This document shows, piece after piece, positions 4,010-30,326 of a DNA stretch of 33,691 bases. The stretch is from Rickettsiales bacterium (GTDB lineage Bacteria; Pseudomonadota; Alphaproteobacteria; Rs-D84). Position numbers and translations under genes: made by a program. The notes under the pieces were generated by a model that searched no databases, had not been told where the DNA came from, and saw nothing but the letters and a program-made list of their open reading frames with translations. Position 1 is the first letter of the stretch. Every line of letters begins with the position of its first letter. The stretch is taken from positions 1 to 33,691 of the forward strand of contig JAIRZE010000096.1 in NCBI GenBank assembly GCA_031267375.1, written 5' to 3'.

Positions 4010-4744
4010 ATGTTTTCATTAAAAGACAAAGTAGCATTGATAACAGGGGCTACCGGCGGAATCGGCGAAGGCATAGCCGCGGCATTCGCGGCGGCCGGCG
4101 CAACCGTCGTCATCACTGGGCGAAACGAGGAAAAGTTGAAAGGACAAATGGACAAATGGACAAATGGACATTATGTCGTTTCAGACTTATCACAACCTGG
4201 CGCTGCGGACGCCCTTGTCAAAGAGACAATTGAAAAAGCCGGCAAAATTGACATTCTGGTAAACAATGCCGGGATTACGAAAGACATTTTGCTGATGCGA
4301 ATGACGGACGAGCAGTTTGACGATGTCATCAATACGAACCTGCGCGCGACTTTTCAGCTGTGCCGCGCGGCGATTATGCCGATGATGAAGAACCGATTCG
4401 GCCGGATTATAAATATGTCGTCAATAATCGGCGCAATCGGCGGAGCGGGCCAGGCGAACTATGCCGCGTCCAAGGGCGGAATAATAGCAATGACAAAAAG
4501 CATAGCGGCCGAAGTCGCCAGCCGCGGAATTACAGCGAATGCGATCGCGCCGGGCTTTATCAAAACGCCTATGACGGATGTTCTGCCGGACGAATTAAAG
4601 GACGCGTATTTGAAGCAGATACCGGCGGGCCGATTCGGAGAACCCGCGGACATAGCGAACGCCTGTGTATTCTTGGCAAGCGCAGAGGCCGGATATATAA
4701 ACGGCCAAACTTTGCATATCAACGGCGGAATGGGACGGTTTTAA
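4010..4744 (+). CDS. fabG: 3-oxoacyl-ACP reductase
   Basis: TGATGGIG, NNAGIT, NYAASKGG, APGFI; follows fabD. Confidence 0.96.
   Translation: MFSLKDKVALITGATGGIGEGIAAAFAAAGATVVITGRNEEKLKGQMDKWTNGHYVVSDLSQPGAADALVKETIEKAGKIDILVNNAGITKDILLMRMTDEQFDDVINTNLRATFQLCRAAIMPMMKNRFGRIINMSSIIGAIGGAGQANYAASKGGIIAMTKSIAAEVASRGITANAIAPGFIKTPMTDVLPDELKDAYLKQIPAGRFGEPADIANACVFLASAEAGYINGQTLHINGGMGRF
4142..4170. repeat. GGACAAAT octamer array in frame in fabG (GQMDKWTNGH)
   Basis: GGACAAAT x3 plus GGACA. Confidence 0.9.
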
Positions 4745-4849: not shown

Positions 4850-6613
4850 CTTTACCGCCCGCAGCACCGCGATTATTCCCGCCGGCGTCATTCCCTGAAT
4901 TCTTGACAATGCCGCGATATTTTCCGGCCGCGCGCGGCTGAGTTTTTCTTTCAATTCATTCGTCAGGCCCGAAAGCAAAGAATAGTCAAACGCACCCGGA
5001 ATTTTTATATTTTTATCATTGTTATAGCGTGCGATCTCTCGGCTCTGGCGGGCGATGTATCCGGCATATATTTTGTCGTTATTTGTGATTTCAGATTTAT
5101 GATTTGCGAATTGCCTTTCGCATTCTTCCGCTGAAATCAATCTGGCCGCGACCGCCATTTCGCCCAGTCGGGCGATAGCATTATCGGCGCGCAGCTGCAA
5201 TCTGTATTCCGCGCGCGATGTGAACATACGATAGGGCTCGTCAATGCCCAGCGTCGTTATATCGTCAATCATCACGCCGATCATAGAGTTTGTGCGGTCA
5301 AGATTCAGGGCAAGACTGCCTTTTGACTTTTGACTTTTGCCCTCTGCGGCGCAAGCCGCGGCATTCGCCCCCGCGACCAGGCCCTGGGCGGCGGCTTCTT
5401 CATACCCGCTGGTGCCGTTTATTTGGCCGGCAAAGAACAATCCCGGAATATCTTTGCTTTCCAGATTTGCTTTCAAAGCGCGCGCGTCAATCGCGTCGTA
5501 TTCTATCGCATATCCATAGCGGGCAACGCGGCAATTTTCCAATCCCGGAATAGTGCGCAGAAATTTGTCCTGAACCAATTCGCCGAACGAAGTGGATAAT
5601 CCGTTGGGATAAATTAAATCAGAATCCAGACCTTCGGGTTCCAGGAAAATATGATGCGACTTGTGCTCTGGAAAACGCATAACCTTGTCTTCCAGGGACG
5701 GGCAATAGCGCGGGCCTATGCCCTGAATTGTTCCGTTGTACATCGGCGCGTCCGCAATATTGCCCTGTATTATTTGATGAGTCTCTTCCGTCGTATGCGT
5801 GATGAAACAGGAAATGGGCAAATGGTCAGATGGACAAATGGACATTTCGCTTTGTTCCTGCCCGTCTGTCCTTTTGCCCATTTGTCCTTCACTAAACCAA
5901 TTATGATTTTCTTCCGACGGCTGCGGCTCGCACACATTAAAATCTATACTGTCGGCATACAGACGCGCAGGCGTTCCGGTCTTTAAGCGCAGAATAGCAA
6001 AACCGGCTTTTCGCAATATTTCTGAAATATTTGCATCAGGCTCTTGATATGTCCCGTCGTCTTGCAAGCGCCCTGTTGGAATGCGCCGGGCCCCGCGCGT
6101 GGCGACACCGCGCAGAAAAGTCCCGGTTGTCAGCACCAATGCCTTTGCCCGGTATTTGTTATTTATGATTTTATTTTCCAGATCCAGCGATTGAACAGAC
6201 TCATAGATAATGGACAAAAGGTCAGATGGACAAAAGGACATTTTGTTTTGTTCCTGTCCTTTTGTCCTTTTGTCCTTTTGTCCTTTTAATAGCTCTTTTA
6301 CCACTTCCCGGTAAAGATTACGGTCTATCTGGGCCCGCAGAGCCTGTGTGGCGGCGCCGTGCGTGGAATTCAGCAGCCGCCAGTGAATGCCGGCGCGATC
6401 TGCGGCGCGCGGCATAATCCCGCCCAGCGCGGCCATTTCTGCAATCATTTGGGACTTTCCCGGCCCGCCCAGGGACGGATTGCAGGACATAGCGCCCAGA
6501 TCGCTTTCGGACTTTGTAAGCAGCAGGGTCTTTGCGCCAATGCGCGCGGCGGCAGCGGCGGCTTCAACGCCTGCGTGTCCGCCGCCGATAATAATGACAT
6601 CAAATTCATTCAT
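4844..6613 (-). CDS. mnmG: tRNA uridine 5-carboxymethylaminomethyl modification enzyme MnmG/GidA
   Basis: GGGHAG, MSCNPS.GG, RLKTGTP, GPRYCPSLEDK, GQINGTSGYEEAAAQG, EPYRMFTSRAEYRL. Confidence 0.97.
   Translation of the reverse strand: MNEFDVIIIGGGHAGVEAAAAAARIGAKTLLLTKSESDLGAMSCNPSLGGPGKSQMIAEMAALGGIMPRAADRAGIHWRLLNSTHGAATQALRAQIDRNLYREVVKELLKGQKDKRTKGQEQNKMSFCPSDLLSIIYESVQSLDLENKIINNKYRAKALVLTTGTFLRGVATRGARRIPTGRLQDDGTYQEPDANISEILRKAGFAILRLKTGTPARLYADSIDFNVCEPQPSEENHNWFSEGQMGKRTDGQEQSEMSICPSDHLPISCFITHTTEETHQIIQGNIADAPMYNGTIQGIGPRYCPSLEDKVMRFPEHKSHHIFLEPEGLDSDLIYPNGLSTSFGELVQDKFLRTIPGLENCRVARYGYAIEYDAIDARALKANLESKDIPGLFFAGQINGTSGYEEAAAQGLVAGANAAACAAEGKSQKSKGSLALNLDRTNSMIGVMIDDITTLGIDEPYRMFTSRAEYRLQLRADNAIARLGEMAVAARLISAEECERQFANHKSEITNNDKIYAGYIARQSREIARYNNDKNIKIPGAFDYSLLSGLTNELKEKLSRARPENIAALSRIQGMTPAGIIAVLRAVKK
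5081..5108. repeat. ATTTNNG heptamer array in frame in mnmG (ANHKSEITN)
   Basis: ATTTGTG ATTTCAG ATTTATG ATTTGCG. Confidence 0.7.
5320..5347. repeat. CTTTTGA heptamer array in frame in mnmG (AEGKSQKSK)
   Basis: CTTTTGA CTTTTGA CTTTTGC CCTCTGC. Confidence 0.8.
5812..5889. mobile_element. ~78 bp palindromic octamer-armed element, copy A, in frame in mnmG
   Basis: GGACAAAT-type left arm, spacer TTTCGCTTTGTTCC, inverted right arm; encodes GQMGKRTDGQEQSEMSICPSDHLPI. Confidence 0.75.
6210..6287. mobile_element. ~78 bp palindromic octamer-armed element, copy B, in frame in mnmG
   Basis: GGACAAAA-type left arm, spacer TTTTGTTTTGTTCC, inverted right arm; encodes KGQKDKRTKGQEQNKMSFCPSDLLSI. Confidence 0.75.
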
Positions 6614-6676
6614 AAGCGGAATGATATAATAAAAAAACTGGAAATAAAGAAAAACTTGTGATAGATTTGCGGACAG

Positions 6677-6752
6677 GCCGGTTTAGCTCAGCTGGTAGAG
6701 CATCTCATTCGTAATGAGGGGGTCGTAGGTTCAAGTCCTATAACCGGCACCA
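6677..6752 (+). tRNA. tRNA-Thr(CGT)
   Basis: GCCGGTT/AACCGGC acceptor stem, TTCGTAA anticodon loop, GGTTCAAGTCC, encoded CCA. Confidence 0.95.
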
Positions 6753-6787
6753 CCTTTCCGCCAAGGCTTCGGGTGGCGCGCCAACAG

Positions 6788-6828
6788 AAAAAATCAAGCG
6801 TCCATACTCGGACGCTTGAACTTTTTTT
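6788..6828. terminator. bidirectional intrinsic terminator
   Basis: TCAAGCGTCC-ATACTC-GGACGCTTGA flanked by A- and T-tracts between convergent genes. Confidence 0.85.
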
Positions 6829-6841
6829 AACCGGGATTTAT

Positions 6842-7351
6842 TTATTTCCCCTCGTGATGCGCTTCTTCCAGGCAGCGGATTTTATCGTGCAGCCATTTGT
6901 CCCAATGCATTATGTCAACCGCGTCCCACTTCGTAAACTCAAAGCGCGCAGTCCAGCGGAATTTCATTTTCATCCATTGCTTGGACAGGCATTCCTGCAT
7001 ACATTTGCCCTCTGCATATTCCATTCCCGCCGCCTGAATAAACGCATAGTTCAGCGATTTCAGCTTTTCTATGTCCATTTCCAGCTTTGGTATGAAATTC
7101 TTGAAGTGGCTTTTCAAATCGGCGAAAGAATATCCGCCCTTTGGCGCCGATTTCTTTACTTCCATTCCATAATCCAGCGCAAAGTTCGCTATGCAAATTC
7201 CGTGCTTGAAAAACAATTTCGCGTGATGCCGGTGCAGGCGCTTTAATCCGTTCAGATTGGTTTTGTGCGCGGCGATCATAGCCTCTTCGTGCAGCAGAGC
7301 CTGATTGTCCGCCACATCTTTGAATCCTTGCAGGATTTTCCCCAGTTCCAT
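6842..7351 (-). CDS. hypothetical His-rich all-helical protein, possibly ferritin-like
   Basis: AAAGGAG RBS, own terminator, plausible composition; fold is only a guess. Confidence 0.75.
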   Translation of the reverse strand: MELGKILQGFKDVADNQALLHEEAMIAAHKTNLNGLKRLHRHHAKLFFKHGICIANFALDYGMEVKKSAPKGGYSFADLKSHFKNFIPKLEMDIEKLKSLNYAFIQAAGMEYAEGKCMQECLSKQWMKMKFRWTARFEFTKWDAVDIMHWDKWLHDKIRCLEEAHHEGK

Positions 7352-7447
7352 TTTTTTCTCCTTTGTTGTTGGCGCACTGATTATGCCTTGGATGCCGCCG
7401 CCGCATCAATGCGGAGCAATTCCTATGCGCCTGCGTTGAAAAAACTG

Positions 7448-7475
7448 TTGAAATCGCAAACAAATGTGTTAAAAT
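7448..7475 (+). promoter_or_regulatory. sigma70-type promoter of ileS leader
   Basis: TTGAAA-16bp-TAAAAT with TGn extension; predicted start lies at the leader ATG. Confidence 0.65.
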
Positions 7476-7482
7476 CAAAGCT

Positions 7483-7515
7483 ATGAATAACAAAAGCATA
7501 ATCATTATAGAATAA
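7483..7515 (+). CDS. putative ileS leader peptide MNNKSIIIIE
   Basis: 10-codon ORF with four consecutive Ile codons ATA ATC ATT ATA upstream of ileS. Confidence 0.75.
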   Translation: MNNKSIIIIE

Positions 7516-7521
7516 ACAGCA

Positions 7522-7565
7522 ATGCGCCGATGCGTAAAGCTGGGGCGCGTAGCGCCTGTTTTTTT
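7522..7565 (+). promoter_or_regulatory. putative attenuator of ileS
   Basis: ATGCGCC(7522-28) pairs with GGCGCGT(7544-50); alternative GGGCGC-GTA-GCGCCT hairpin followed by a T7 tract. Confidence 0.7.
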
Positions 7566-7587
7566 ATAAGAGTCCAAGGAACAATAA

Positions 7588-10500
7588 ATGTCAAAAGCAA
7601 AGCACTATCCTGAAATCAACGCCCGCGCAGACTTTCCAAAGCTTGAAAAGGAAATTCTGGCTTTCTGGGATGCGGAAAAGATTTTCAACCAGACTATTGA
7701 AAACCGCGCCAGTGCGCCAGAATATGTTTTTTACGACGGACCGGCTTTTGGAAACGGACTTCCGCATTACGGGCATATTCTGACTTCCTATGTAAAGGAC
7801 CTTGTTCCGCGCTATCAGACTATGCGCGGGAAAAAAGTGCCGCGCAACATTGGCTGGGACTGCCACGGCCTGCCGGCCGAGCTGGAAGCTGAAAAATACC
7901 TAAAAATTTCAGGAAAAGCCGAAATCGCGAAATTCGGAATAAAAGAATTCAACGCCGTCTGCACAGAGCGCGTGCAGATGTATGTCGGCGAATGGGAAAA
8001 GTTTTTGACAAGAATGGGCCGCTGGATTGACTATTCGGACACTTACCGCACTATGGATTTGAACTATACCGAAAGCGTCATATGGGCATTCAAGAAATTG
8101 TATGACAAGGGCTTGATTTATGAAGGGACTTATTCAATATGGTACTCTTACGGCGCGGAGTCAACCGTTTCAAATTCCGAGACAAAGCAGGACGACTGCT
8201 ATCGCGAGCGGGAAGACACCAGCGTTACCGTGTCATTCCTTTTGGACGAAGAATTTGACGGGAAACCGACGCATATATTGGCTTGGACGACAACGCCCTG
8301 GACATTGGTCGCAAACTTCGCATTATGCGTTGGCGAAGACATAGACTACGCCGTTATGGAAGAGAATAACCAGTATTATGTAATCGGAGACAAGGCGCGC
8401 GAGCGTTATAAACAGCAACTGCAAAACGCAAGCTTTGTCAAGACGGTCAAAGGGCGCGATTTAGTGGGCAAGACTTACACGCCGCTGTTTGATTTCTTTG
8501 GTGATGTAAAACACGCGTTCAAGGTTGTCTCCGCCGACTATGTTACGATCGATGACGGAACCGGAATCGTCCACCTTGCGCCGTTTGGGGAAGAAGACTT
8601 GATAATTATGGAGCGCGAGGCTATTTCTTGGCACGCCCCCGTAGACAGTCAGGGAAAATTTACAAAGCAGGTTGGACAGTATGCCGGAATGCTTGTCTTT
8701 GATGCAATAGACCCAATTGTATCGGATCTTAAAAAATCAGGAAAGCTGATAAAGAAAGAGCAATACAGGCATATGTATCCGCATTGCTGGCGCACGGGTG
8801 TCCCGCTTATAAATATGCCGCTGAACAGCTGGTATGTGGCGGTTGATAAGTTTAGGGATCGCATTGGCGAATTAAATAAAAAAATTGATTGGATTCCGGA
8901 TCATATCCGCGACGGGCAAATGGGCAAGTGGCTGGCTGGCGCAAGGCCTTGGGCCATATCGCGCTCCCGATTTTTCGGCGCGCCGATCCCGGTTTGGAAA
9001 TCCGACAACCCGGAATATCCGCGGATTGATGTATACGGCAGCATTGCCGAGCTGGAACGTGACTTTGGTATAAAGATCACCGATTTTCACCGACCGTATA
9101 TAGACGAACTGACTCGGCCGAATCCGGATGACCCGACTGGAAAATCAATGATGCGCCGCATTCCGGAAGTATTGGATTGCTGGTTTGAATCCGGCGCTAT
9201 GCCTTTTGCGTCCAAGCATTATCCTTTTGAAAACAAGGATTGGTTTGATTCTCACTTTCCCGCTGATTTTATCGTGGAATACATAGCTCAAACGCGCGGC
9301 TGGTTTTATAATATGATGATTCTGGCAACGGCATTGTTTGATAACGAGCCATTCAAAACTTCGCTGTGCCACGGCGTGGTTTTGGGAAACGACGGCAAGA
9401 AAATGTCAAAATCCCTGCGCAATTATCCCGACCCTATGGATGTTATAGAAACATTGGGATCCGATTCATTGCGATGGTTTCTGATGTCTTCAACAATTCT
9501 GTCCGGGGGTAATATGTCCGTTGCGCGCGAAGATATCGCAAAGTCCGCACGCGAAGTCATAATGCCGCTGTGGAATACATTTTATTTCTTTACGCTTTAT
9601 GCAAACGCCGAAGGAATAAAAGCGAAAGAAATCGCAACCGCGACAGATCCGCTGGATAAATACATATTGTCAAAACTTCGCACTATGGTTCTGCGCGTCA
9701 CGGAATTGCTGGATGCGTCGCGCATAAATGAAGCCGCGCCATTATTCTCGGCATTTATGGAAATCTTGAACAACTGGTACATACGCCGCTCGCGCCCGCG
9801 CTTTTGGGACGGAAAAGACACGGCCGCATTTGATACTCTGTATACCGTACTGACCGTGCTATCCAAAGCATTGGCGCCTTATATGCCGATGACCGCGGAA
9901 TTTATTTACAAATCGCTGACTGGTGATAAATCCGTTCATTTGCAAAACTGGCCAGATGTATCAGCTATCGCGGAAAATCATAATATTGAAAAAGCAATGG
10001 ATATCGTGCAATCTGTGGTTGCCGTTGGAAAAGCCTTGCGCGAGAATGCAAGACTGCGCAATCGTTTGCCGCTGGCAAAAATGACTATCGCCGGCGCGGA
10101 TTTATCAGAGTACGCGGATATAATAAAAGATGAATTGAATGTAAAATCTGTTGAATTTACAACCAATATTTCATCCGTTGCCGATTCGTTCGTATATTTG
10201 ATTACCCCGAAAATCGGGGAAAGATTAGGCGGCGCTTTGAAAGAAATTATCCCAGCAGTAAAAGCCGGTAATTACGAAATCAAAGACGGGCAGCTTTATG
10301 TCCTTTGTCCTTCGTCCTTCGTCCTTCGTCCTTCGGAATACGAAAATCGTCTGACTGTAAAGCCCGGAATCACAGGCGCGGCATTGCCCGACAATACCGC
10401 CGTAGTCGTTCTGGATACAAATCTAACGCCGGAACTGATTGCCGAAGGCCTGGCCAACGACGCCCTGCGCTTTATTCAGGACACGCGCAAACTGGTTGGC

Positions 10501-10686
10501 CTGGATGTGTCTGACCGCATACATCTGACCGTCGCAGGCGACGCGGAAATGATAGCCGCGTTCCGCGCACACGAGCCGCGGATTGCGGAAGATGTCCTGG
10601 CGCTGGATATAAACTATTCTGACGGCGAACAGGAACACAAGACAGAGATTGAAAATCACAAGTTTTCAATAAAGATTGAAAAATGA
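7588..10686 (+). CDS. ileS: isoleucine--tRNA ligase, type 2
   Basis: LPHYGH, GWDCHGLP, AWTTTPWTL, YPHCWR, QTRGWF, KMSKS; long type-2 C-terminus without Zn finger. Confidence 0.97.
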   Translation: MSKAKHYPEINARADFPKLEKEILAFWDAEKIFNQTIENRASAPEYVFYDGPAFGNGLPHYGHILTSYVKDLVPRYQTMRGKKVPRNIGWDCHGLPAELEAEKYLKISGKAEIAKFGIKEFNAVCTERVQMYVGEWEKFLTRMGRWIDYSDTYRTMDLNYTESVIWAFKKLYDKGLIYEGTYSIWYSYGAESTVSNSETKQDDCYREREDTSVTVSFLLDEEFDGKPTHILAWTTTPWTLVANFALCVGEDIDYAVMEENNQYYVIGDKARERYKQQLQNASFVKTVKGRDLVGKTYTPLFDFFGDVKHAFKVVSADYVTIDDGTGIVHLAPFGEEDLIIMEREAISWHAPVDSQGKFTKQVGQYAGMLVFDAIDPIVSDLKKSGKLIKKEQYRHMYPHCWRTGVPLINMPLNSWYVAVDKFRDRIGELNKKIDWIPDHIRDGQMGKWLAGARPWAISRSRFFGAPIPVWKSDNPEYPRIDVYGSIAELERDFGIKITDFHRPYIDELTRPNPDDPTGKSMMRRIPEVLDCWFESGAMPFASKHYPFENKDWFDSHFPADFIVEYIAQTRGWFYNMMILATALFDNEPFKTSLCHGVVLGNDGKKMSKSLRNYPDPMDVIETLGSDSLRWFLMSSTILSGGNMSVAREDIAKSAREVIMPLWNTFYFFTLYANAEGIKAKEIATATDPLDKYILSKLRTMVLRVTELLDASRINEAAPLFSAFMEILNNWYIRRSRPRFWDGKDTAAFDTLYTVLTVLSKALAPYMPMTAEFIYKSLTGDKSVHLQNWPDVSAIAENHNIEKAMDIVQSVVAVGKALRENARLRNRLPLAKMTIAGADLSEYADIIKDELNVKSVEFTTNISSVADSFVYLITPKIGERLGGALKEIIPAVKAGNYEIKDGQLYVLCPSSFVLRPSEYENRLTVKPGITGAALPDNTAVVVLDTNLTPELIAEGLANDALRFIQDTRKLVGLDVSDRIHLTVAGDAEMIAAFRAHEPRIAEDVLALDINYSDGEQEHKTEIENHKFSIKIEK
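10300..10334. repeat. GTCCTTC heptamer array in frame in ileS (VLCPSSFVLRPS)
   Basis: GTCCTTT plus GTCCTTC x4. Confidence 0.92.
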
Positions 10687-14938: not shown

Positions 14939-14940
14939 TT

Positions 14941-15085
14941 TAGTGGTCAGTGGTTAGTTGTTAGTGGTCAGTTCAAGTATGACAAATTCTAATAAAAAAT
15001 ACCACCGTAAAGTGGTATTTATGTGGACAGTGTTGTGGCCGTGGAAAGATAAAACTGACCACTGGCCACCAATCACTGACCACTA
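14941..15085. repeat. inverted AGTGGT(C/T) heptamer arms around a terminator-like hairpin
   Basis: Arms at 14941-14973 and 15053-15085; hairpin AAATACCAC/GTGGTATTT at 14997-15020; rplT stop lies inside the arm. Confidence 0.9.
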
Positions 15086-15439
15086 CTTGATAAATCGTTT
15101 TGCTGTTTCAATCAACGCCGCGAAGTTTGCATCCCCGGCATAGGCCATTTCCGCCAAAACCTTGCGATCCAATTCTATGCCCGCCTTTTTCAAGCCGTTC
15201 ATAAACTGGCTGTATGTCAGTCCCGCGGCGCGGACGGCCGCATTAATGCGGATAATCCACAGGCTGCGGAATTCGCGCTTTTTGACGCGACGGTCGCGAT
15301 ATGCGTACTGTCCGGCTTTTTCGGTTTTTTCACGCGCCGCGCGGTATGTGCTGCCGTGGCGGCCCAGATAGCCCTTTGCGCGTTCCAGGATTTTGGAATG
15401 TTTTCTATTTACGGTCGTGCCGCGTTTTACTCTTGCCAT
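15083..15439 (-). CDS. rplT: 50S ribosomal protein L20
   Basis: [29 protein letters not shown]. Confidence 0.98.
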
Positions 15440-30234: not shown

Positions 30235-30326
30235 CAATGAACAATGAACAGTGAACAATGAACAATTTTTTTGTAAAAATATTTATAGCAATTCATTGTT
30301 CATTGTTCATTGTTCATTGTTCATTT
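30235..30326. repeat. inverted CAATGAA/TTCATTG arms overlapping the start of the next CDS
   Basis: 4 units at 30235-30262, 5 inverted units at 30292-30326. Confidence 0.92.

Follow-up and report, generated by a model that had tools for sequence, protein, structure and literature searches.

A probable isoleucine-codon transcription attenuator upstream of ileS in a family of small-genome Alphaproteobacteria

Introduction

How is the gene for isoleucyl-tRNA synthetase, ileS, controlled when it is preceded by a tiny open reading frame (ORF) that is itself full of isoleucine codons? The question is raised by a stretch of DNA from a Rickettsiales bacterium of the Alphaproteobacteria (contig JAIRZE010000096.1 of assembly GCA_031267375.1, positions 1 to 33,691, forward strand), which was analysed over its whole length of 33,691 nt and is called the window below. 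Its ileS follows a ten-codon ORF with four consecutive Ile codons and then three mutually exclusive RNA hairpins. The element is conserved across a family of small-genome Alphaproteobacteria, as judged by comparing sequences. In our assessment it is very probably a transcription attenuator of ileS, read by the ribosome through the Ile codons, whichever way it responds. The direction of this response is a separate matter: the anatomy of the leader suggests that sufficiency of Ile-tRNA opens ileS, whereas physiology suggests the opposite.

The ileS leader in the window

The whole element sits in the 236-nt gap between ileS and a divergent upstream ORF. The hairpins are labelled P1 (anti-antiterminator), AT (antiterminator) and T (terminator). 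The parts of the locus are, in order:

7448..7475, + strand, sigma-70-like promoter: -35 TTGAAA at 7448-7453, 16-nt spacer, -10 TAAAAT at 7470-7475
7467-7468, + strand, TG of an extended -10, from the sequence
7483..7515, + strand, leader ORF encoding MNNKSIIIIE and a stop: ATG AAT AAC AAA AGC ATA ATC ATT ATA GAA TAA
7498..7509, + strand, Ile codons ATA ATC ATT ATA (four consecutive among ten codons)
7517..7542, + strand, predicted hairpin P1 (anti-antiterminator): 7517-7520/7539-7542 and 7523-7527/7532-7536, loop 7528-7531
7522..7550, + strand, predicted antiterminator AT: 7522-7528 pairs with 7544-7550, incompatible with P1 and also with the terminator
7543..7565, + strand, predicted intrinsic terminator T: stem 7543-7548/7552-7557, 3-nt loop GTA, then G and T7 (7559-7565)
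7576..7581, + strand, putative Shine-Dalgarno-like AAGGAA of ileS, read from the sequence
7588..10686, + strand, ileS, 1032 amino acids, a long (type-2-like) isoleucyl-tRNA synthetase (IleRS) by Pfam and NCBIfam

The leader ATG (7483) lies 7 nt past the -10 hexamer, and the ATG of ileS (7588) lies 22 nt past the T tract. The promoter agrees with the consensus at 10 of 12 positions, in a region (6500-8500) where six promoter-like sites were seen for 2.4 expected. The ileS product has the Pfam domains tRNA-synt_1, Anticodon_1 and DUF5915, and scores 791 bits against the NCBIfam model TIGR00392 ileS (cut-off 621). A preliminary description of this DNA had reported the promoter, the ORF, the AT and T stems, the T7 tract and a spacing of about 22 nt to ileS, and each of them stands where it had been placed. 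Its view that the design is a minimal one of two stems gives way to a family design with three hairpins, P1 having been missed.

The stem 7522-7528/7544-7550 belongs to the minimum-free-energy fold of the window sequence. Taken singly, this sequence does not fold beyond chance (z = −1.82; 9 of 200 shuffles were equally good), and the significance of the element is therefore drawn from conservation. A pairing of the U tract with the Ile codons, seen in one fold, was set aside, as the U tract would still be inside the polymerase at the time of the decision. A second promoter in the region of the T tract and ATAAT was rejected by eye, having neither a -35 nor a TG element. The T-box reading of the leader was also rejected, there being no Rfam T-box match: T-box (RF00230) gave no match at its gathering score in the window and none at E ≤ 10 in 7380-7640. 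Among Rfam leader families, none matched near its threshold in 7380-7640; four chance-level matches to unrelated families were found there, the best at 21 bits for a threshold of 55.

Conservation of the element in the family

An initial survey covered 30 ileS loci from 41 related genomes. In 13 of the 30, ileS is preceded by a mini-ORF with an Ile run, then a GC-rich hairpin and a T run; one more such leader is cut by a contig end. All these positive loci fall within the family of the window. Two further ORFs flagged by the script (L007 and L011) start with TTG and lack hairpins, and were dropped as chance. We then used a covariance model, R1, built from 12 copies, with a match threshold of E ≤ 0.01. 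R1 matches 143 of 151 family genomes, almost always once per genome. A sample of 150 genomes of the order is mostly a resampling, as 121 of them belong to the family; the 29 non-family genomes gave no strong match, and the two weak matches among them (E 0.002 and 0.007) were not on the contigs that carry ileS.

The detailed statistics given below refer to 54 distinct full-length copies. The N-terminus of IleRS is encoded downstream on the same strand in 50 of them, and for the other four too little downstream DNA was fetched. The distance from leader to ileS is within 60 nt in 47 copies, and 104, 552 and 554 nt in three. At two loci, L028 (genome G018) and L029 (G022), the Ile leader stands about 550 nt before ileS with another ORF in between; in L029 this ORF may, from its sequence, be of acetyltransferase type.

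A search at the level of the class was restricted to the long IleRS type. It found the long type in 8 of 60 other genomes at E ≤ 1e-100, with one locus masked by N. In two of these eight, outside the family, there are Ile-rich mini-ORFs of a different design. They belong to two other alphaproteobacterial families (L224 and L226) and encode MSDIRSISIIISIIIP and MRSFFKHPSFDIIP, each followed by a stop, before long-type ileS. Their last Ile codons and a Pro codon make up the 5' arm of a hairpin, with the stop codon in the loop and a U run next.

The leader ORF as a translated frame

Each of the 54 copies runs from ATG to TAA over 9-11 codons (ten codons in 46 copies, nine in 7, eleven in 1) and is free of in-frame stops. 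Stop codons close frame +1 in all 54 copies and frame +2 in 20 of them. At its longest, the Ile run has four codons in 45 copies, three in 8 and five in 1. Ile occupies the three positions preceding the last sense codon in 54, 54 and 52 of the 54 copies, i.e. Ile2-Ile4 are near-invariant, while codons 2-5, which are A-rich, and the last codon are variable. The 220 Ile codons are all ATT, ATA or ATC and thus vary synonymously, the commonest pattern being ATA-ATT-ATT-ATA. Insertions and deletions in the ORF are multiples of three. In five copies the codon after the Ile run has turned into TAA, which puts the stop 3 nt earlier with all stems retained. The leader ORF bears the signature of a translated frame, and the comparison of copies suggests that it is translated. 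A look for sequencing runs covering 7300-8300 listed none.

The preliminary description had proposed an Ile-codon leader peptide with a terminator and a mutually exclusive antiterminator before ileS, and had held that loss of the Ile run in relatives would speak against it. The proposal is borne out by the matches to R1, by a run of at least three Ile codons in 54 of 54 copies, and by the covariation of AT and T described below.

In 36 of the 53 copies whose upstream DNA is long enough, the leader ATG comes 6-8 nt after the end of a -10-like hexamer, which itself has a -35-like hexamer 16-18 nt upstream. This spacing indicates that the leader mRNA is probably leaderless. In three copies the leader follows a tRNA gene instead.

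Three mutually exclusive hairpins

Folding each sequence from the stop codon to the T run gave two adjacent hairpins, P1 then T, in most copies. AT excludes both. Its family form has 10 bp, four of them G-U, and closes a loop of 4 nt. Its 10-nt 5' arm consists of the end of the P1 5' strand, the P1 loop and the start of the P1 3' strand, and its 3' arm of the end of the P1 3' strand and the entire 5' arm of T. The stretch between P1 and T is strongly conserved because it serves in two helices, one of them AT.

Covariation is clear for two of the hairpins. In T, 97.8% of cells are paired and three of six pairs have changed on both sides; in AT, 92.2% of cells are paired and four of ten pairs have changed on both sides. 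None of 500 shuffles scored as high in either case. For P1, we took support from the per-sequence folding and from a strand-swap test rather than from fixed columns. The native 5' strand adds −6.97 kcal/mol, compared with −5.99 after permuting the 5' strands among copies (the native value was reached in 0 of 500 permutations) and with −4.32 when the strand is shuffled (0 of 200). P1 has an energy of −11.7 kcal/mol in the window. The family medians are −11.4 for P1, −13.35 for AT and −11.6 kcal/mol for T. In 43 of 54 copies AT has the greater stability of AT and P1; P1 and T together beat AT by 9.7 kcal/mol.

P1 begins at the first to third nucleotide past the stop codon in 43 of 54 copies, the AT arm begins at the ninth or tenth in 45 of 54, and the Ile codons lie 10-19 nt upstream of P1. 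One variant, in G007 (MTTIIIF and a stop), is predicted to fold into a single long hairpin ending at the U tract.

Ribosome reach and the direction of the response

Which strand can a ribosome on the leader cover? In bacteria, the ribosome's mRNA channel extends for 11 nt downstream from the first P-site base, and hairpins may lie 11-12 nt from the P site, according to the passages that we cite from PMC7282821. With such a channel, a ribosome with the fourth Ile codon in the A site covers the RNA to 7515 and leaves P1 whole. With GAA in the A site it covers to 7518 and part of the P1 outer stem. With TAA in the A site it covers to 7521, i.e. the outer 5' strand of P1 entirely, and the AT arm, from 7522, is free. 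The earlier suggestion that a ribosome at the stop codon masks the antiterminator is not supported by these positions, as the covered strand is the 5' strand of P1. They also depart from the placement of regulatory codons in which the stalled ribosome lies over the 5' strand of the first hairpin: the fourth Ile codon reaches 7515 and P1 starts at 7517. That placement would result only from a reach of 15-17 nt.

We masked an increasing stretch after the stop codon and compared the best terminator-containing fold with the best fold in which the T 3' arm is unpaired. The differences, in kcal/mol, were:

0 nt masked (first free base 7516): window −5.8, family median −7.0
3 nt masked (first free base 7519): window −1.2, family median −6.0
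6 nt masked (first free base 7522): window +0.8 (terminator disfavoured), family median −2.9
8 nt masked: window +0.6, family median −1.4
10 nt masked: window −2.7, family median −5.3
12 nt masked: window −4.8, family median −9.0

In the window, the terminator is favoured again by 2.0-5.2 kcal/mol once at least 9 nt past the stop are covered. As long as the T 3' arm is absent, AT comes out as the best fold for 65% of unmasked copies, for 94-96% when 3 or 6 nt are masked and for 28% when 12 nt are. The folding model thus predicts that AT can win only in a narrow zone, about 4-9 nt past the stop. Given an 11-nt channel, only a ribosome that stands on the stop codon or on the last sense codon would reach this zone.

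This anatomy would make the position of the ribosome on the leader decide between P1 plus T (ileS off) and AT (ileS on). The one strand within reach of a ribosome translating the leader ORF would be the 5' strand of P1 (7517-7521). With its A site on the last sense codon or on the stop codon, a ribosome would cover this strand and block P1; AT would then form once 7544-7550 emerges, and the RNA polymerase would read through into ileS. A ribosome waiting at any Ile codon, or no ribosome at all, would leave the strand free, and P1 would form first and T next. Transcription of ileS would require the prompt decoding of the four Ile codons, and would be off when charged tRNA-Ile is short. We tentatively prefer this feed-forward direction, with ileS on when charged tRNA-Ile is plentiful, and judge it to be nearly an even bet. 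It fits the near-invariance of Ile2-Ile4, as each Ile codon would delay arrival at the end of the ORF, and it fits the five copies with an early TAA and all stems kept.

Alternative explanations

Several points weigh against the feed-forward reading. To our knowledge, every known synthetase control, be it the T-box or pheST attenuation, raises the enzyme as charging falls, and a feed-forward control would be anti-homeostatic. The direction follows from a model with a footprint of 10-13 nt and thermodynamic folding rather than kinetics; a ribosome reach of 15-17 nt would reverse it and make the device a textbook one. Two divergent ileS leaders of 11 codons, in G009 (MSIREIIIIKI and a stop) and G011 (MINKTIIIIEN and a stop), have no P1, and their AT arm lies inside the footprint of a terminating ribosome. 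These two and the lysS leaders of the same genomes unambiguously carry textbook wiring. The column-wise covariation of P1 is weak (69.3% of cells paired, five of nine pairs changed on both sides, 28 of 500 shuffles as high), because the P1 5' strand shifts by 1-3 nt in the MAFFT alignment, and 10 of 54 copies have a P1 weaker than −8 kcal/mol. Finally, 8 of the 151 family genomes have no R1 match, and G012 and G020 have a plain promoter before ileS.

The same device could therefore respond in the textbook direction, to which we give substantial weight, only slightly less than to the feed-forward one. A shortage of Ile-tRNA would stall the ribosome at the fourth Ile codon or the next one, the start of P1 would be covered, AT would form and transcription would read through. 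With plentiful Ile-tRNA, the ribosome at TAA would cover the first bases of the AT arm, or would have left so that P1 refolds, and T would form. Homeostatic logic and all known precedents, with the attenuation of E. coli pheST among them, speak for this direction. The older attenuation literature assumed that a ribosome keeps 15-17 nt past the first P-site base single-stranded; with this reach, the zone that permits AT, 4-8 nt past the stop in the window, matches the fourth Ile codon or GAA in the A site, and TAA gives T. AT outdoes P1 in 43 of 54 copies, and P1 may not persist. In the lysS leaders and in the G009 and G011 variants, the AT arm starts 1-6 nt past the stop. The predicted trpS and leuS attenuators of Streptomyces, as presented in the sections cited from PMC1262725, are also of this kind. 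On the other side, with an 11-nt channel a ribosome at the fourth Ile codon covers only to 7515 and leaves P1 whole, and ribosomes at Ile1-Ile3 are further off, such that the strictly kept Ile2 and Ile3 would be useless or even harmful, early stalls giving P1 plus T. The AT arm of 45 of 54 copies lies 9-10 nt past the stop, beyond a terminating ribosome, and the five copies with TAA right after the run keep all stems despite a stop 3 nt earlier.

The remaining explanations dispense with an Ile-specific response, with translation, or with function. The element might check the coupling of transcription and translation in general, the run being kept, for instance, as an A/U-rich unstructured 5' end for leaderless initiation. 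The device does need a ribosome at the end of the ORF, whatever causes the delay, and codons 2-5 are likewise A-rich and variable. However, Ile is kept at the level of the amino acid, with no ATG or other A/U-rich codon substituting Ile2-Ile4 in the 54 copies, the downstream gene is ileS in 50 of 50 testable copies, and the lysS, thrS and serS leaders carry their own cognate codons, which together make this explanation improbable. Slightly less probable still is a switch made of RNA only, with an untranslated ORF and with P1, AT and T responding to a protein (e.g. IleRS), a tRNA or a small ligand. It would agree with the high conservation of the AT/P1 region across genera whose IleRS are just 44-52% identical, and with the occurrence of T-box-like leaders in the lineage. 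Yet that conservation is explained by the use of one stretch in two helices, the Rfam matches in the region stay far from threshold (21 for 55 bits) with no T-box at E ≤ 10, and all 54 copies preserve the frame, its length, its start and its stop, with other frames closed. A functionless coincidence of promoter, short ORF and stray terminator would be compatible with the non-significant fold of the single sequence (z = −1.82), but it is already refuted by the comparison, and we regard its probability as negligible: 143 of 151 family genomes have the element, mostly as a single match and directly before ileS where tested, and T and AT show compensatory changes.

Leaders of other synthetase genes

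The preliminary description had extended its idea to other synthetases, proposing that the lineage controls them through leaders rich in the cognate codon. This holds for lysS, thrS and serS and, on weak evidence, for metG; it fails for valS, leuS and pheS, where nothing comparable was found, and aspS and asnS have leaders that are T-box-like.

Upstream of lysS, a 9-10-codon ORF with a conserved Lys-Lys pair is present at 4 of 4 loci (L099 on contig C76 of G000; L095, L096 and L097). The peptides are MSNNTKKFS, MILNSKKTFE, MFVCKKIHI and MRKNNKKFI, each ending at a stop codon. At all four loci the layout is Lys-Lys, 2-3 codons, the stop, an AT arm about 4 nt later and a terminator, with no P1, and a tRNA gene precedes the leader at three of them. 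The thrS leaders (5 of 5 loci, L123-L127) have 17-20 codons with a Thr run, then Pro-x-Gly codons forming a CCCC/GGGG hairpin. The small hairpin past the ORF often has no U run and, judged by eye, overlaps a pair of promoter-like hexamers. At 3 of 4 loci (L129, L130 and L134), serS is preceded by a leader that is rich in Ser and has the same build. The names of thrS and serS were verified at one locus each. Before metG, a short ORF with internal Met codons is present at 2 of 2 loci. In the window it encodes MKINSMML, followed by a stop and a terminator (780-867), and comes after tRNA-Val with a weak R1 match (E 0.29) and no clear antiterminator seen; at the equivalent position G014 has MRMYN and a stop.

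The upstream regions of aspS (L090, L091, L092 and L094) and asnS (L098 and L100) share a common GGTGGCACCGCG motif. Five of these six loci have Rfam T-box matches below threshold (24.8-30.3 bits for 93; E 0.0024-0.059). T-box-like leaders would be unusual in Alphaproteobacteria. In the window, pheS follows rpmI-rplT on the minus strand; the region 14939-15100 has a terminator and a promoter-like TAGAAT, has no Phe-rich leader, and is flanked by heptamer repeats of the TGACCAC/AGTGGTC type.

A scan of G000 for a mini-ORF and terminator before a gene returned 49 raw rows, mostly chance ORFs next to the terminators of upstream genes. It found a homopolymeric run only at ileS, and it missed the lysS and thrS leaders.

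Genome context

The genome of the window comprises 0.92 Mb in 109 contigs and is 78.5% complete. Gene content was searched in five family genomes (G000 and four relatives; completeness 78.5-100%). None of the five has an IlvD, KARI or RelA/SpoT domain, and Rho is present in all of them. These are probably reduced genomes of organisms that are auxotrophic for Ile (branched-chain amino acids) and have no (p)ppGpp synthetase, i.e. no stringent response.

The window also contains many short tandem arrays (56 rows from TRF), with units of 7-8 nt and a total length of about 30-36 nt, in spacers and within genes, for example at 2104-2136, 4142-4170, 6255-6287, 10300-10335, 14942-14972 and 30292-30325. 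An array in ileS, five units of GTCCTTC, encodes about 12 residues; the same stretch is about 10 residues shorter in two of three aligned relatives, which makes the array an in-frame insertion in a variable loop.

Significance

These observations raise the possibility that a family with neither RelA/SpoT nor Ile synthesis has a 'ribulon' made up of ileS, lysS, thrS, serS and perhaps metG, in which ileS is wired opposite to all known synthetase controls, inverted by an extra hairpin in the footprint of the terminating ribosome. We judge this picture to be somewhat less likely than not. At least four synthetase genes have leaders of this sort in these uncultured bacteria, which lack the stringent-response enzyme, and ribosome position may therefore be their main gauge of amino-acid supply. 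Very few examples are known of synthetase genes attenuated through a leader peptide. If the anatomical reading were true, ileS would be the first synthetase gene under feed-forward, non-homeostatic control by its own charged tRNA.

The element is also of interest for its build. At about 83 nt from its first base to the T tract, it is among the smallest complete attenuators, and its more than 50 natural sequence variants could be used to derive design rules for attenuators. The layout with a stop codon before the hairpin lends itself to asking whether a terminating ribosome opens or closes an antiterminator.

Comparison with known systems

We found no description in the literature of this element, nor of a leader-peptide attenuator of ileS. 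The attenuator of E. coli pheST has the same components, namely a short ORF rich in cognate codons, an antiterminator/terminator pair and a synthetase gene downstream. Leader-peptide attenuators with these components have also been predicted for trpS and leuS of Streptomyces (PMC1262725, in the sections cited). The element described here differs from all three in that its cognate codons are placed 10-19 nt upstream of its first hairpin and its stop codon directly before it; a stalled ribosome therefore does not cover the equivalent of 'region 1'. It also differs in having an ORF of 10 codons that is probably leaderless, and in the gene, ileS.

In its three hairpins the element resembles attenuators of another kind. 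The classical trp attenuator alternates between three structures, 1:2, 2:3 and 3:4. The ilvBNC attenuator of Corynebacterium glutamicum has a leaderless leader peptide and anti-antiterminator, antiterminator and terminator hairpins, as described in the cited part of PMC11857589. Like these two, the ileS leader has three mutually exclusive hairpins of similar stability and its transcript may start at or beside the leader ATG, as that of ilvBNC does in that account. Unlike it, trp and ilvBNC are biosynthetic operons whose regulatory codons, as far as the cited part goes, overlap the first hairpin. There is no sequence similarity with either, in that no Rfam leader family matches the element.

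Leaderless short ORFs with a run of cysteine codons have been described in mycobacteria, together with the idea of a 'ribulon' (bioRxiv 10.1101/834739, in the portion cited). Both systems would use leaderless ORFs with a run of a single codon as sensors read by the ribosome, and both employ one design at several loci (here ileS, lysS, thrS and serS). In the portion cited, the stalled ribosome of the mycobacterial system opens a structure that hides a ribosome-binding site, i.e. it controls translation, and the genes belong to cysteine metabolism; here, the leaders carry a predicted intrinsic terminator before synthetase genes. Among Alphaproteobacteria, Caulobacter crescentus has CCNA_03934, an 'ileS leader' coding sequence (CDS) known from ribosome profiling and used as a negative control in the passage that we cite from PMC4117421. 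It resembles our leader as a small CDS upstream of ileS; there it is translated according to ribosome profiling, and the likeness is drawn from its description only.

The gene itself is controlled elsewhere by T-boxes, which form the leaders of ileS in Firmicutes and Actinobacteria (PMC1262725, in the sections cited). In that account, as would be the case here, the balance of charged and uncharged tRNA-Ile controls ileS through a choice between antiterminator and terminator or sequestor. The T-boxes read the tRNA directly and without a ribosome, whereas the leader of this family would have the ribosome read it through four Ile codons.

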